Shown in pieces: positions 23,347-41,321 of a stretch of 51,754 bases of DNA. The notes below the pieces were generated by a model, which was not told the origin of the DNA, searched no databases, and saw only the letters and a list, made by a program, of their open reading frames with translations. The stretch's first letter is position 1. Each line of letters opens with the position of its first letter. The DNA is taken from the sequence record MT446404.1; one strand, 5' to 3'. Made by a program: the position numbers and the translations under genes. The stretch comes from Escherichia virus TH30.

Positions 23347-23741
23347 CGCTTGTGATTTCGTGCATTCTTTTTCATTGCCGCGAAGGCGATAAAGCAGAAC
23401 ATCCCAGGCTCGGTGAATCGAAGTTTTCCATACTGGCGGCACATGCGGCGGAACTTACGCTTATCATTAAGGACGCCAGTTACGCGCTTCTCAGTTACAA
23501 CAAGGCGGCGCGGACCTTTTACTACCACGAAAGTGACTGCTGGGCCGCTTGCGAGATTCAGGTTAAACTTACTGCCTTTCTGGATGGCGTACCAAGTAAG
23601 GCCGTTATCCACATCAATAACATCAGCCACGTTGAGGTGACGGTTTGGCCTGCGTTTAGCTTCGTACACATGACCAACCTGAAAGTGATCTTCGAACAGA
23701 GGCGCTAACCCTGGATGTATTTTAACGCAACGTAATTTCAT
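23343..23741 (-). CDS. hypothetical basic protein (132 aa)
   Basis: ORF only. Confidence 0.4.
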   Translation of the reverse strand: MKLRCVKIHPGLAPLFEDHFQVGHVYEAKRRPNRHLNVADVIDVDNGLTWYAIQKGSKFNLNLASGPAVTFVVVKGPRRLVVTEKRVTGVLNDKRKFRRMCRQYGKLRFTEPGMFCFIAFAAMKKNARNHKR

Positions 23742-23940
23742 GGTTATTCCCCTTCGTTTTCGTCGAATTGTTGATTATTGATCTGAGTGCGAACCTCTTT
23801 GACCATCTCGGAGAACTCATAGGCTGTGCACTGCATAGGCTGAGTAGCCAGGAGTTGCTTAAGAATGACGGCTTGCTTATCTGACAGGTTGATAGTAATC
23901 ATTTTGCTTTCCTCTCGTTTGGTGTGAACTAACTATAACA

Positions 23941-23957
23941 AAACCCGCCGGAGCGGG
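23941..23957 (-). terminator. hairpin CCCGC-cgga-GCGGG with U-run, adjacent to conserved motif
   Basis: Read on minus strand. Confidence 0.45.
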
Positions 23958-23958
23958 T

Positions 23959-23975
23959 TTAGCAATTCGTGCTAT
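23959..23975 (-). promoter_or_regulatory. conserved 17-bp motif (ATAGCACGAATTGCTAA), dyad TAGCA/TGCTA
   Basis: Immediately after stop of 23976..24608. Confidence 0.55.
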
Positions 23976-24608
23976 TTACCATGGTAATCCATCTTCCCAC
24001 TCGTAAACATCAACCTCTGGAACTTGTGAGCTAATACCGCAAGCCTCAGCAACCGCCAGGACGCCGCCATAAATATCACCATTGACGAGGTGAACGCTAT
24101 GCTCCTGATACTTTTTATAATCAGGGAAATGCGATTCCTTGATGCGAATGTAACCACGGCTATCGCCAGCGAAAGTCTTGCCATCCATGAACAGGCGGAC
24201 CAGGGTAACATCGTGACCATCTTCAACGAGTTGGATCACTTCATCGGGGAAGCCGCCATCAGTGCAAACAAAGCAGAAGCCCTCATCACACAGTCGGATA
24301 TGTTCGCTCATCAATTTGCCGAACTGCTGATTGCCAAAAAGCGGCTTGACCACTGTTTCGCTAATCCAGATCATGAACTCACGGCAGGTCTTGCCACCGA
24401 GAAAGCCCTGAGGCTGCTCTTTCTGATCGCGGTCGTCGTATGCTGTGATGAACTTTGAGAAAGACTTGGCACCAAGGATGGATGCTGCAATCTCAAACAT
24501 CGGACGCTTGAAGCTAGTCGGGATGCAATTGTAATCTGCTGCAAGCGCGTTGCCGATCGTGTCTTTACCAACCGAAGCTGGGCCGTTGAGGATGATAATT
24601 TTTGACAT
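23976..24608 (-). CDS. P-loop nucleotide kinase (dNMP-kinase-like, 210 aa)
   Basis: Walker A GPASVGKDT at N-terminus. Confidence 0.6.
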   Translation of the reverse strand: MSKIIILNGPASVGKDTIGNALAADYNCIPTSFKRPMFEIAASILGAKSFSKFITAYDDRDQKEQPQGFLGGKTCREFMIWISETVVKPLFGNQQFGKLMSEHIRLCDEGFCFVCTDGGFPDEVIQLVEDGHDVTLVRLFMDGKTFAGDSRGYIRIKESHFPDYKKYQEHSVHLVNGDIYGGVLAVAEACGISSQVPEVDVYEWEDGLPW

Positions 24609-24657
24609 TTTTATATTCCTGAGTAGTGGGCGCGATGTGCGCCCGTTAAGGTTAGTT

Positions 24658-25275
24658 TTATTTACCGCTTACGAGATTGCATTTTTTGCACTGGCGAACA
24701 CCATGCGGAGGTAGCGGCTCGCTAAATTCGTGCTCGCAAACTTTTTCTACGCCGTGAGACTTAAGGGCGGAGTGCACGTTATCGCCATAGTCGCACACCT
24801 GATAGGTAGTGATTCCGAGGCTTCGGAAGTGAGCGATAACATTCGGGCTATCATCCCACGCTGCGGTGATGCGGTGCAAGCCAATGTATCGTAAAAACTC
24901 TTCCTTGATGATCGTATCCTTTCGGTTATCATCAGCCTGGCGCATGACCAGAACGTTATATTTAGCGCCAGCATCATGCAGCCATTGCGTTGATTCCTCA
25001 ACAACATCATCAGATCGACCAGTGAGTACGATAATGAAAGCGCCGGAAGCGAATAGGCTATTCATTACGTCAATCGTTTCCTGGAATGGCTGATCGAACT
25101 TGCTCAATGAGTTAAATTCAAGCCATGACTCAGTGAGGTGCAAATCCTTGGTCGGTAGCTTGTGCAGGCGGTGCGATCCGTCCGACAGAGTACCATCGAA
25201 ATCAAATATGTAAACTTTCTTGTTTACCGCTTCCGTTTGAAGGTGATGCTTAATCATGGTGTAAAGCTGATTCAT
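24658..25275 (-). CDS. HAD-superfamily phosphatase (polynucleotide 3-phosphatase-like, 205 aa)
   Basis: HAD motif I IFDFDGTL; C-terminal Cys/His cluster. Confidence 0.55.
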   Translation of the reverse strand: MNQLYTMIKHHLQTEAVNKKVYIFDFDGTLSDGSHRLHKLPTKDLHLTESWLEFNSLSKFDQPFQETIDVMNSLFASGAFIIVLTGRSDDVVEESTQWLHDAGAKYNVLVMRQADDNRKDTIIKEEFLRYIGLHRITAAWDDSPNVIAHFRSLGITTYQVCDYGDNVHSALKSHGVEKVCEHEFSEPLPPHGVRQCKKCNLVSGK

Positions 25276-25306
25276 TTTAACTTCCTTTCGTGTGGTTTAT
25301 GTGGGG

Positions 25307-25315
25307 ATTATACCA
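25307..25315 (-). promoter_or_regulatory. extended -10 TGGTATAAT inside a hairpin, downstream of conserved motif
   Basis: Plus-strand attatacca; about 35 nt upstream of ATG at 25275. Confidence 0.45.
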
Positions 25316-25333
25316 GTCAGGATGAATCCCCTT

Positions 25334-25350
25334 TTAACAAAGCGTGCTAT
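25334..25350 (-). promoter_or_regulatory. conserved 17-bp motif (ATAGCACGCTTTGTTAA), upstream stop TAG embedded
   Basis: Stop of 25347..26150 is the TAG of the motif. Confidence 0.55.
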
Positions 25351-26150
25351 TTGATATAAAACTGAGCCACTACGCCGCCATCAGGATTTACTATTGCGTA
25401 TGCGTCACCGGGCATTGCCTTGGCATTCATAACCTTACCAATTCTCTTTGCTTCCCATCGGCAATCGCCTTTTAATCCAGATACGAAAGCATCCTGCGTG
25501 ATGTAAATAAGTCTCGGACTACCGACAAAACTCTCACTGATTTCATACTCATACTCGCAACCATTGATAAATTCGTTGCCGTTAACATGGTAGCAAACTG
25601 CCACCTTGCGATCGCGTGCAGATTCGCATTCACCCACCGCCCATACGTGACGATTGCCATAACCGTAACCGCCGCTGCGTGGTTCCATTTTCGCGGTTGA
25701 CATCGTGATGCCATGGCTACCGATGAAACTTTCGCCAAAAGTGAACTTTCCGTTCTTCGTCAATTCATCTTCGACGCTGTAGGTGTCATCCTTAACGGTT
25801 TTCCCTGGGCCAGTCGCAAGCTCGCTTACGAACGCATCGACCGTGTTGTGGCACGGATCGCCATTGTACTTAGGAAAATCCTTGAGCAATTGCTCGTACG
25901 CTTCGTGCACCAGATTACCTACAACTTCTTTGATAGCCTGCTCAATATGCTCAGCGAGAATCGAAGGTGCAGAAATTTGATGTTTTTGAGTCGATTCTAA
26001 CGCCTTTAAACGCGCTTGTAACGACTCAATTTCTTGCTTATGCATCGCGTAGGATACCCACGCTCCATCGTCGCAGGCTTGCATTCCGACACCGTGAATG
26101 TTGACGCTGGTTGCTACTGATACAGGGATATAACGTCTGATGCTTTTCAT
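25347..26150 (-). CDS. hypothetical protein (267 aa), largest uncharacterised early protein
   Basis: ORF only; N-terminal coiled-coil-like segment. Confidence 0.5.
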   Translation of the reverse strand: MKSIRRYIPVSVATSVNIHGVGMQACDDGAWVSYAMHKQEIESLQARLKALESTQKHQISAPSILAEHIEQAIKEVVGNLVHEAYEQLLKDFPKYNGDPCHNTVDAFVSELATGPGKTVKDDTYSVEDELTKNGKFTFGESFIGSHGITMSTAKMEPRSGGYGYGNRHVWAVGECESARDRKVAVCYHVNGNEFINGCEYEYEISESFVGSPRLIYITQDAFVSGLKGDCRWEAKRIGKVMNAKAMPGDAYAIVNPDGGVVAQFYIK

Positions 26151-26218
26151 ATTTAATTCCTCAGTTGGTTTGTGTTCACTTGACAGGAGACACTATAGCT
26201 AATGTCTCCGAGCAAGTT

Positions 26219-39141: not shown

Positions 39142-39618
39142 TCAAGATCCGTGACTTCGATGGAATCCATGAATCTTTTCAGCATCCTTTCTTGCTATCA
39201 AAGCGTCATCGAACGAATCTCCATAATAAAGGATCTTTGTTTTTCCATTTATTTTTATCTGCGCTATCCATTTATTTTTCATATTGTTCCAAGCAACACC
39301 AACAGTTCCGCTCGTGTTTGTTGATGGCTTACGCTTGTTCCTGTTGTTGATTAACCTTGTAACCATTCTTAGGTTTTCAATTCTATCATCACCAGGAACG
39401 TGATTTATATGATCTATCTCCATACCATCTGGTATAGTGCCGTTGTGCATCTCCCATACGATTCTATGTCTTGGCGTAATTGTGTCATATCTACGGATAT
39501 ACCAATAACCCCTATGATGCCTACTCCCAGCTTCATCACCAGGCTTCAATCTTGTGCAGTGAGGGTCCTTCCAAAATACCCGTCCATCTTTATAGTATAA
39601 GAAATCATTCCAATTCAT
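39142..39618 (-). CDS. HNH homing endonuclease (158 aa)
   Basis: EIDHINHVPGDDRIENLRMVTR motif; paralogue of 16915..17397 and 40836..41321. Confidence 0.85.
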   Translation of the reverse strand: MNWNDFLYYKDGRVFWKDPHCTRLKPGDEAGSRHHRGYWYIRRYDTITPRHRIVWEMHNGTIPDGMEIDHINHVPGDDRIENLRMVTRLINNRNKRKPSTNTSGTVGVAWNNMKNKWIAQIKINGKTKILYYGDSFDDALIARKDAEKIHGFHRSHGS

Positions 39619-39689: not shown

Positions 39690-40832
39690 TCAAATATCAC
39701 TCATCTCTGGACGGTAAACGAATCGACCAACCTCACCGAACTCTTTTGAGTACACGATTACAGCTGCTTGGCGATACGATCTCCAACCACCACGGGCCGC
39801 ATATGCGTCTTTTGCTCCTAGTTGGCCGTGAACCTCATCAATCCCCAAAGTTCCTTCCGTGATCGTCTGATGGTGCCAATGGCCACTATGCGTGTAAATA
39901 TATTTGCTCGTACCAAACTCTTCGCGGAAGTCAGTAGCCATTGCCGCCAGTCGAGTATCTGCTTTCTTCATGGTGTGACCATGAGTGTACCCCAGCAATG
40001 TCTTACCCCACTTGGTACGGTGAAGAATCATAGGAGACGTATCAACCGTTACGCGCACCTCATCTTCAAAGTATGCCGCCATTGCAGCGCGGAGCCAAAT
40101 CATACCCGCCTGATCATGATTCCCTTCAATGATCTGGATTTCGACCTCTTCGTGCTTATCCAGCATTAGCGCCACCGCGCGGCGTACGGAACGGATTGCA
40201 ACGTGAACTAGCTTGGCGTATCGACTATCCTGATCCAGTACGTGACCGCTTGCAGGCGTCACTGCGTCCAGGCCATCAGAGTGAAGGAAGTCACCGCCGA
40301 TTAGCAGAACTGCTTTCTTAGCCTTCGGTGATACGCCTACGGAATAATCAAAGAAGTTTTTCAGCACTTTCTCTGAGATGTCGGTGCTGTAGTTCTCACC
40401 GCATTCATGCTTGTGGGCCATCGCGCCAATATGAAGATCGAATACAGGATAGAGCGCCAGGAGATTTTCATCATAGCTAGGCTCGCCAAGGATAGGCTGA
40501 GCCGCCGCGCGCGGGAGTTCGTCACAGAATGCTTCAATTGCAGCATCCATCATGGCGGCTAACTTTTCCTTGTCCTGATCGGTCTTAATCCAGCGGATTT
40601 TCTCGTTGCCTTCCGCGTCAATCATAGTTGATGTGGCCTTAACCATGAAGCCGTCAGGCACATATTTAGCAACTGCTTTATTGCCATGCCCGTGACCTTT
40701 ACGAGCAAGGTTACTTGAGCGCTGCTCAACTGTACGAATGTTCATCCCGTATTCTTGGGCGATTTGACGAAGTGTTTTACCAGCTTCGCGCTCAGCAATG
40801 AATTGTTCGTCACTAATCTTCTGCATAGCCAT
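39690..40832 (-). CDS. HTH-domain plus calcineurin-like metallophosphoesterase (380 aa)
   Basis: N-terminal HTH-like LRQIAQEYGMNIRTVEQR; GDFLHSD and GNHD metal-binding motifs. Confidence 0.55.
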   Translation of the reverse strand: MAMQKISDEQFIAEREAGKTLRQIAQEYGMNIRTVEQRSSNLARKGHGHGNKAVAKYVPDGFMVKATSTMIDAEGNEKIRWIKTDQDKEKLAAMMDAAIEAFCDELPRAAAQPILGEPSYDENLLALYPVFDLHIGAMAHKHECGENYSTDISEKVLKNFFDYSVGVSPKAKKAVLLIGGDFLHSDGLDAVTPASGHVLDQDSRYAKLVHVAIRSVRRAVALMLDKHEEVEIQIIEGNHDQAGMIWLRAAMAAYFEDEVRVTVDTSPMILHRTKWGKTLLGYTHGHTMKKADTRLAAMATDFREEFGTSKYIYTHSGHWHHQTITEGTLGIDEVHGQLGAKDAYAARGGWRSYRQAAVIVYSKEFGEVGRFVYRPEMSDI

Positions 40833-40835
40833 TTT

Positions 40836-41321
40836 TTATTCTCCGTGATTCTTGTGAAATTTAAATTTTCTTTGAAATTGCATTCTACACAATTTCGCTT
40901 CTTCTATCGAGTTAAAGTAACCAAGATGCATTAACTTTCCGTCAACCTTTATCCTTGCGCAATACTTTGATAGCGGCTTGTGCCACGACACGCCCGTAAC
41001 TCCGGTTGAATTATCAATTCGTATCGACTGGTTTCTTCCGTTTTCCTTTCTTGTGACAAGCCTGAGGTTAGATATGCTGTTATTGCTCCTGTCATGGTCT
41101 ATATGGTCTATCTCCATTCCATTAGGAATTTCACCGTTATGTATATACCATACAACAATATGAACCCTATAGTTTTTCTTGTTAAACATCATTTGCCAGT
41201 ATCCAGTCACTTTACTGGCGCAACCGCACTTGCTTCCAACCTTTATCTTTTTACTCTTTGATTTCTTCCATACTAAATGAAGTTCATCATCATACTCTAC
41301 AAAATCAATAAGCTCATTCAC
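40836..41321 (-). CDS. HNH homing endonuclease (161 aa)
   Basis: EIDHIDHDRSNNSISNLRLVTRKEN motif. Confidence 0.85.
   Translation of the reverse strand: MNELIDFVEYDDELHLVWKKSKSKKIKVGSKCGCASKVTGYWQMMFNKKNYRVHIVVWYIHNGEIPNGMEIDHIDHDRSNNSISNLRLVTRKENGRNQSIRIDNSTGVTGVSWHKPLSKYCARIKVDGKLMHLGYFNSIEEAKLCRMQFQRKFKFHKNHGE

Follow-up and report, generated by a model that had tools for sequence, protein, structure and literature searches.

The 51,754-nucleotide sequence of Escherichia virus TH30 (MT446404.1), to which we refer as a whole as the window, is the genome of a T1-like siphovirus of the family Drexlerviridae. Two of its genes, lying side by side, are the subject of this work: one encodes a P-loop kinase (23976..24608, 210 aa) and the other a phosphatase of the HAD superfamily (24658..25275, 205 aa). 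A first-pass annotation had delimited the two open reading frames (ORFs) at exactly these positions, which we confirmed, without giving their strand. With both encoded on the minus strand, the kinase gene (24608..23976) lies downstream of the HAD gene (25275..24658). The surrounding region (23500..26200) shares 86-91% nucleotide identity with Escherichia phages CJ19, BUCT-XGG-1, ESCO41 and ETEP102.

The two genes are separated by 49 nucleotides (nt), and each is preceded by an AGGA-type ribosome-binding site. A putative promoter, read from the sequence as an extended -10 element (TGgTATAAT, 25307..25315, minus strand), is located 32 nt 5' of the HAD ATG and is followed by the ribosome-binding site AGGAAG; a two-hexamer promoter scan did not include this element among its calls. 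At the other end, both inspection of the sequence and a terminator scan identified a canonical intrinsic terminator (AAACCCGC-TCCG-GCGGGTTT with a T-rich tail; 23941..23960, minus strand), which starts at 23960, 16 nt past the kinase stop codon. A terminator is annotated at the equivalent position in ETEP102. Given the -10 element, the ribosome-binding sites and the terminator 3' of the kinase, the two genes look like one bicistronic unit. The spacer between them contains a GC-rich hairpin (GGGCGC..GCGCCC, 24624..24648) with no T-run behind it on the coding strand, which may serve as an RNA stability or processing element or as an attenuator.

The HAD protein is a Pnkp-type phosphatase without a kinase domain

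The HAD protein is a DxDxT phosphatase homologous to the 3'-phosphatase domain of T4 Pnkp (residues 160-301). It matched the Pfam family HAD_PNKP (PF25109) with an E-value of 1.7e-18 and 67.5 bits (cutoff 27.6), and PHROG 415 with an E-value of 5.6e-65. A sequence search of the PDB returned only the phosphatase domain of T4 Pnkp (5uj0, 1ltq) and Pnkp1 of Capnocytophaga gingivalis (4xrp). Similarly, T4 Pnkp and Pnkp1 were the best Foldseek matches of the AlphaFold model (predicted local distance difference test score, pLDDT, of 83), followed by AphA-type acid phosphatases, and the matches of this model in a viral structure library were mostly stand-alone and full-length Pnkp-type phosphatases. 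The HAD family profile aligned with T4 Pnkp residues 138-297 at an hhalign probability of 97.5% over 140 columns.

The active site is intact, as judged by comparison with a T4 Pnkp sequence that is 100% identical to a T4 record. The DFDGTL motif that had been noticed in the first-pass annotation is indeed present at residues 25-30 and constitutes HAD motif I (D25-F-D27-G-T-L, 25186..25203). It is followed, on the same minus strand, by motif II (L-T85-G-R87, 25015..25026) and by the stretch from K124 of motif III to D141-D142 of motif IV (24850..24906). Three T4 Pnkp residues that we take to be essential for the phosphatase, R176, R213 and D254, correspond to R36, R87 and D120. Likewise, T4 D165, D167, S211, K258 and D277/D278, whose catalytic roles have been described (PMC3592404), correspond to D25, D27, T85, K124 and D141/D142. 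Every one of these positions is invariant among 40 homologues. By this match, D25 is the predicted nucleophile and D27 the predicted general acid/base. Since the catalytic set maps onto the HAD protein and is invariant, we are almost certain that this Pnkp-clade protein works as a phosphomonoesterase.

After motif I, at the position where HAD enzymes carry their cap, the protein has an insert of about 14 residues that is absent from T4 Pnkp (25102..25164, minus strand). Within it, L40, P41, H46, L47, W51 and F54 are invariant. The spacing between motifs I and II is accordingly 60 residues, compared with 46 in T4 Pnkp and 64 in the T5 deoxynucleoside-5'-monophosphatase Dmp. In the HAD superfamily, a cap insert is associated with small-molecule substrates and its absence with macromolecular ones; following this logic, the cap-site insert makes the phosphatase lean, weakly, toward a small substrate.

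The protein ends in a variable tail resembling a zinc knuckle (C180-E-H182 ... C196-K-K-C199, residues 180-205; 24661..24738, minus strand), where the pLDDT of the model drops to about 60. Only some HAD relatives have this Cys/His tail, and those of 163-181 aa lack it. A CDH...CxxCGK version is found in P0174 and P0233, and P0163 apparently has two copies of the tail. Two separate places in the genome of Krischvirus RB49 (OZ035808.1, hit H161) matched the HAD protein, which suggests, at the sequence level, that this phage carries a stand-alone Pnkp-type phosphatase besides pseT.

The kinase belongs to the dNMP kinase lineage

The first-pass annotation had described the Walker A motif of this protein as lying in an arrangement like that of deoxynucleoside monophosphate (dNMP) kinases, and our analysis agrees: the protein adopts the fold of T4 gp1 and T5 Dnk and matched PHROG 139, "deoxynucleoside monophosphate kinase", with an E-value of 6.8e-41. 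As with PF25109 and PHROG 415 for the phosphatase, this is far beyond chance. No Pfam family matched the kinase and a PDB sequence search with it returned nothing; the fold search, using a model with a pLDDT of 93, was alone informative. An exhaustive profile search (E up to 0.001) recovered 2463 cluster representatives at 50% identity, mostly phage-borne. The family profile aligned with T4 gp1 at an hhalign probability of 95% over 174 columns, and for T5 Dnk the probability was 96% across the N-terminal 50 columns. The 25-residue P-loop was all that aligned with T4 Pnkp, and the window kinase is not a homologue of the Pnk-type 5'-kinase domain (T4 Pnkp residues 1-150). The gp1 sequence was 100% identical to a T4 record, and its residues were placed by hhalign; a MAFFT alignment with gp1 and Dnk was unreliable in the middle region.

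The kinase begins with MSKIIILNGPASVGKDT, in which the Walker A motif reported in the first-pass annotation occupies residues 9-17 (G9-P-A-S-V-G-K15-D16-T17, 24558..24584, minus strand). This is the GxxxxGKD(T) P-loop of the gp1 fold: G-K-D-T is kept, and gp1 Arg11 has no counterpart. The acceptor site differs from that of gp1. The stretch D117-G-G119-F-P-D-E123 (24240..24260, minus strand) is the counterpart of gp1 D175-T-R177-Q-D-H-E181 and of DVRFPNE in T5 Dnk, with gp1 D175 and E181 represented by D117 and E123. The central arginine of the D-x-R-x-x-x-E motif is replaced by Gly119, which is at least 90% conserved among 130 family representatives. In gp1, R177 contacts both the phosphate and the base of the dNMP (residue roles from Table 2 of PMC10653934). 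Of the other basic residues with which gp1 binds the dNMP phosphate (K37, R68 and R132), R68 aligns with R60, R131 (next to R132) with the invariant R76, and K37 lies three positions from K34, as placed by the profile alignment only. The family also has invariant residues of its own, namely S83, E84, K88, F120 and R151. The last of these has no gp1 counterpart and is part of a LID-region motif, G-D149-S150-R151 (24156..24167, minus strand), that is invariant or nearly so.

The loss of R177 has two possible explanations. In thymidylate kinases, an arginine swap involving the LID separates class I from class II, and by analogy R151 could have taken over from R177 with the NMP-kinase chemistry intact. 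Alternatively, the altered motif could reflect a change of acceptor. Judged by its sequence, we assign the window kinase to a large and distinct subclade, "DGGFxxE", which is uncharacterized and newly recognized here. Several of its relatives carry additional segments: an N-terminal extension of about 70 residues with a conserved G-[IV]-[KR]-Y-[LI]-P-E motif (P0270, P0273, P0309 and P0320), a Cys-rich N-terminal domain (P0292) or long low-complexity C-terminal tails (P0251, P0257 and P0274).

Gene linkage and natural fusions

We surveyed 80 IMG/VR loci from the kinase side and 80 loci from the HAD side. When HAD genes were taken as the starting point, a kinase gene was found downstream on the same strand in all but one of the 80 loci, and in 38 of these 79 the two genes overlap by 3-6 nt, an arrangement that suggests translational coupling. 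The sole exception (L091, a 46,219-bp contig) has no kinase within 6 kb downstream, which makes it a natural comparator carrying the phosphatase alone. From the kinase side, 39 of 80 loci had the HAD gene upstream on the same strand, either within 150 nt (22 loci) or at 0.7-1.5 kb (17 loci). The remaining 41, which harbor more distant kinases, had no such HAD gene within 6 kb. Where HAD and kinase genes are apart, the gaps contain small variable ORFs; two loci have an HNH homing endonuclease gene there instead. JulesPiccard was initially considered a phage lacking the HAD gene; this was rejected, as a profile search revealed the gene under the annotation "hypothetical".

The two proteins also occur as single polypeptides, P0256 (461 aa) and P0266 (403 aa), in which a HAD_PNKP domain at the N-terminus is joined to a kinase of the window family at the C-terminus. 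The domain order is thus that of the window genes, HAD first. We regard these fusions as real because three contigs, representing two samples, encode P0266 and a separate one encodes P0256. One of the P0266 contigs, a 60.7-kb phage contig, also encodes RdgC, NinH, Prim-Pol and a Dam-type methyltransferase. Overall, the HAD phosphatase and the kinase are functionally linked.

Two further observations concern these arrangements. A metagenomic protein of 243 aa (P0281) joins HAD motifs I-II to a kinase part that starts at about residue 45 and has no P-loop; it probably represents either a fusion that has decayed or an artefact of assembly. The HNH genes in the two interrupted loci, one of which is a 48,836-bp contig, are similar to the window's own HNH_3 genes.

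Genomic context

In loci where the kinase occurs without the HAD gene, its neighbors include genes for ThyX, an NT5C-type deoxyribonucleotidase, an ATP-dependent DNA ligase and a 5'-3' exonuclease, that is, a DNA-precursor and replication neighborhood. The ATP-dependent DNA ligase lies within two genes of the kinase in about 10 of the approximately 40 loci of this kind. In one 117-kb viral contig with no Pnkp-type HAD gene, an NT5C-family 5'(3')-deoxyribonucleotidase gene directly follows the kinase gene (L058:6561-7148), apparently a case in which this kinase family was paired independently with a HAD nucleotidase.

The scan of the window, which covered the larger ORFs, those neighboring the pair and some of the small ones, revealed no ligase or other nucleotidyltransferase, and no gene of the fully annotated relative JulesPiccard is labeled a ligase. 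ARAGORN identified no tRNA genes in the window. ETEP102 and JulesPiccard carry a tRNA-Arg gene in the equivalent early gene block. To our knowledge, E. coli has no ligase for RNA ends bearing 3'-OH and 5'-phosphate, and its RtcB requires unhealed ends.

On the upstream side, the HAD gene is adjoined by a 267-aa ORF (25347..26150, minus strand), which we considered as a hidden ligase and ruled out: its product has no Pfam match and no KxDG motif. Its first 53 residues weakly matched a PHROG without assigned function (E=1.8e-4), and relatives have ORFs of differing sizes at this place. Elsewhere in the window, two HNH_3 homing-endonuclease genes (39142..39618 and 40836..41321, minus strand) flank a gene for an SbcD-like "DNA repair exonuclease" (39690..40832).

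A predicted nucleotide-supply module and its alternatives

We favor the interpretation that the pair constitutes a nucleotide-pool module, in which the phosphatase strips 3'-phosphates and the kinase makes deoxynucleoside diphosphates (dNDPs), and we consider this somewhat likelier to be right than wrong. The analysis shows the homologies, the intact active sites, the operon layout, the conserved gene order and the fusions in relatives; what the enzymes act on, the 3' specificity of the phosphatase and the physiological role of the pair are inferred as follows. In the early region of this T1-like genome, the two genes would be expressed as one co-transcribed, coupled unit, and its products would use (deoxy)nucleotides in free form, or oligonucleotides of very few residues, as substrates. 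The phosphatase would most likely remove 3'-phosphates from 3'-dNMPs, nucleoside 3',5'-bisphosphates or 3'-phosphorylated oligonucleotides, and the gp1/Dnk-type kinase would turn 5'-dNMPs into dNDPs. Together, the enzymes could channel the products of nucleic-acid breakdown into the deoxynucleoside triphosphate (dNTP) pool for phage DNA replication. This interpretation is consistent with the identity of the kinase family, the coupling of the two genes, the cap-site insert and T5 Dmp-like signature of the phosphatase, the neighborhoods of the HAD-less kinases, and a window devoid of tRNA genes and, among the scanned ORFs, of a ligase. The authors of the paper on phage KanT1 independently mention that Drexlerviridae carry genes named "polynucleotide kinase" and "dNMP kinase" in conjunction, and guess that these enhance the supply of nucleotides. 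The first-pass annotation had proposed either a nucleotide-metabolism module or an RNA-repair counter-defense. Of these, the former is the one we retain; tRNA repair found no support, with no ligase detected among the scanned ORFs and no tRNA gene in the window.

Several points weigh against a nucleotide-supply role. No member of either the DGGFxxE kinase subclade or the stand-alone phosphatase subfamily has been assayed, and we found no experiments on the HAD-kinase pair in the literature. The kinase is devoid of both gp1 Arg177, which contacts the acceptor phosphate and base, and the P-loop Arg11, and has gained the invariant Glu84 in the acceptor region; as read from the sequence, the loss of these arginines and the gain of Glu84 would fit a hydroxyl acceptor too. 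T4 Pnkp, to which the phosphatase is closest among characterized proteins, heals polynucleotide ends in its physiological setting, and a kinase-phosphatase fusion is precisely how end-healing enzymes are built. Finally, a source of 3'-phosphorylated deoxynucleotides in T1-infected cells is not established.

An alternative, corresponding to the first-pass annotation's idea of a split polynucleotide kinase, is that the pair is a non-orthologous analogue of Pnkp, in which the HAD protein would clear 3'-phosphates or 2',3'-cyclic phosphates, a retooled gp1-type kinase would phosphorylate 5'-OH ends, and a host ligase would reseal DNA or RNA breaks made by defense nucleases. The kinship of the phosphatase with the end-healing phosphatases of T4 Pnkp and Pnkp1 speaks for it, as do the strict gene order with its many overlaps and true fusions, the replacement of R177 by glycine together with the gain of Glu84, and the DNA ligases encoded near the HAD-less kinases. 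However, the fold and profile of the kinase are those of dNMP kinases, and the P-loop is all that it has in common with kinases of the Pnk or Clp1 type. The other arginines with which gp1 binds phosphate probably have counterparts in R60 and R76, and the invariant LID Arg151 could stand in for R177, as the thymidylate kinase classes would suggest. In addition, the cap-site insert of the phosphatase is absent from the macromolecule-acting T4 enzyme, the scanned ORFs of the window and the JulesPiccard annotation provide no ligase, the window provides no tRNA gene, and the host RNA ligation described above would not be expected to use healed ends. On balance, we consider this alternative unlikely. 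We regard as slightly less likely still the proposal that the unit and its fused forms represent an unrecognized class of end-healing enzymes, in which a kinase of dNMP-kinase lineage would have been remodeled (Arg177 to Gly, with Glu84) to act on 5'-OH termini. If it were true, T1-like phages could mend the 5'-OH/3'-phosphate breaks left by host defense nucleases with the help of a host ligase. The first-pass annotation's description of a "split polynucleotide-kinase-like pair" is half right: it holds for a Pnkp-like phosphatase coupled to a kinase, but not for the origin of that kinase, which is of dNMP-kinase rather than Pnk lineage.

The pair might instead resemble T5 Dmp and Dnk, with the HAD protein acting as a selective 5'-(deoxy)nucleotidase that edits the pool and the kinase advancing the remaining dNMPs. 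The two would have opposing chemistry on different substrates, possible targets of the HAD protein being dUMP, ribonucleoside monophosphates or one particular dNMP. Indeed, Dmp has all HAD motifs, the DxDGTxxxxxHR signature and a motif spacing closer to that of the window protein than to that of T4 Pnkp; T5 encodes a kinase, Dnk, homologous to that of the window; and one HAD-less relative has the NT5C-type gene directly after its kinase gene. Nevertheless, the family profile scored 40.5 bits for T4 Pnkp and 17 for T5 Dmp, hhalign gave 97.5% over 140 columns for the former and 67% over 82 columns for the latter, and Dmp was not among the best 50 structural matches in the viral library. Moreover, a futile cycle could result if a 5'-nucleotidase were co-expressed with, or fused to, a dNMP kinase, and dmp and dnk are unlinked in T5. 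We therefore find this arrangement quite unlikely. Very unlikely, in our estimate, is that the two proteins have unrelated functions and are adjacent by synteny only, or that they act on a non-nucleotide or signaling target, for example by inactivating a defense second messenger. Small unrelated ORFs or HNH genes do separate HAD and kinase in many relatives, one HAD-bearing relative (L091) lacks a kinase within 6 kb downstream, and many phages have the kinase alone, but fusions occur in at least two lineages, 79 of 80 HAD loci have the kinase gene too, without exception in matching order and orientation, and neither the HAD protein nor the kinase matched any PADLOC defense-system model. NCBIfam, similarly, gave no meaningful match for either protein.

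Annotation and significance

The labels given to the two genes in relatives vary considerably, and include the pairs "polynucleotide kinase" and "hypothetical", "putative polynucleotide kinase phosphatase" and "putative deoxynucleotide kinase", and "acid phosphatase" and "phosphomevalonate kinase". Because the HAD protein has no kinase domain, "polynucleotide kinase" is a misnomer for its gene. Hundreds of Drexlerviridae and Kagunavirus-type genomes use this name for a phosphatase-only gene, which invites unfounded claims of RNA repair. Annotations and one paper had already revealed the pairing of the HAD and kinase genes; what this analysis adds is the evidence from fusions, a synteny that is close to obligate, a corrected annotation and the recognition of the distinct DGGFxxE kinase subclade. 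A paper on the Eco2 retron, followed as a literature lead, was dropped, since PNK appears in it only as a reagent. If the unit feeds nucleotide pools, it would help explain how small phages that use host replication proteins obtain precursors. If it heals polynucleotide ends, it would represent an independent evolutionary solution to the problem that Pnkp solves.

Comparison with known systems

T4 Pnkp (pseT) and Pnkp1 are the closest known systems on the phosphatase side. They share the DxDxT acylphosphatase fold with the window protein, are its best sequence and structure matches (5uj0, 1ltq and 4xrp), and have the same nucleophile, general acid, phosphate-binding Ser/Thr and Lys, and Mg-binding Asp pair. 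Unlike T4 Pnkp, however, the window phosphatase has no Pnk-type kinase domain, its partner kinase is of a different family, and the two activities are encoded by two ORFs rather than one polypeptide. At the cap position it is longer by about 14 residues, and no ligase partner was found for it among the scanned ORFs. Where fused relatives exist, their order is phosphatase-N/kinase-C, the reverse of T4. On the kinase side, identity to T4 gp1 and T5 Dnk is about 15%, the window protein is shorter (210 aa versus 241 for gp1), and, in contrast to these, its gene is coupled to that of a phosphatase.

T5 Dmp, the classical 5'-deoxyribonucleotidase, is likewise a HAD enzyme with the DxDGT....HR signature; its cap-site insert is about as long as that of the window protein, and its phage also carries a gp1-like kinase. 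Its similarity to the window phosphatase is nonetheless weak and confined to the N-terminal half (the hhalign probability of 67% given above), and the T5 genes are far apart: dmp is in the first-step-transfer DNA, which enters first, and dnk lies about 21 kb further along. In mammalian PNKP, an FHA domain is followed by the HAD phosphatase and then the kinase, so that the phosphatase precedes the kinase as in the phage fusions, although the mammalian kinase domain is of the Pnk type and not of the gp1 type.

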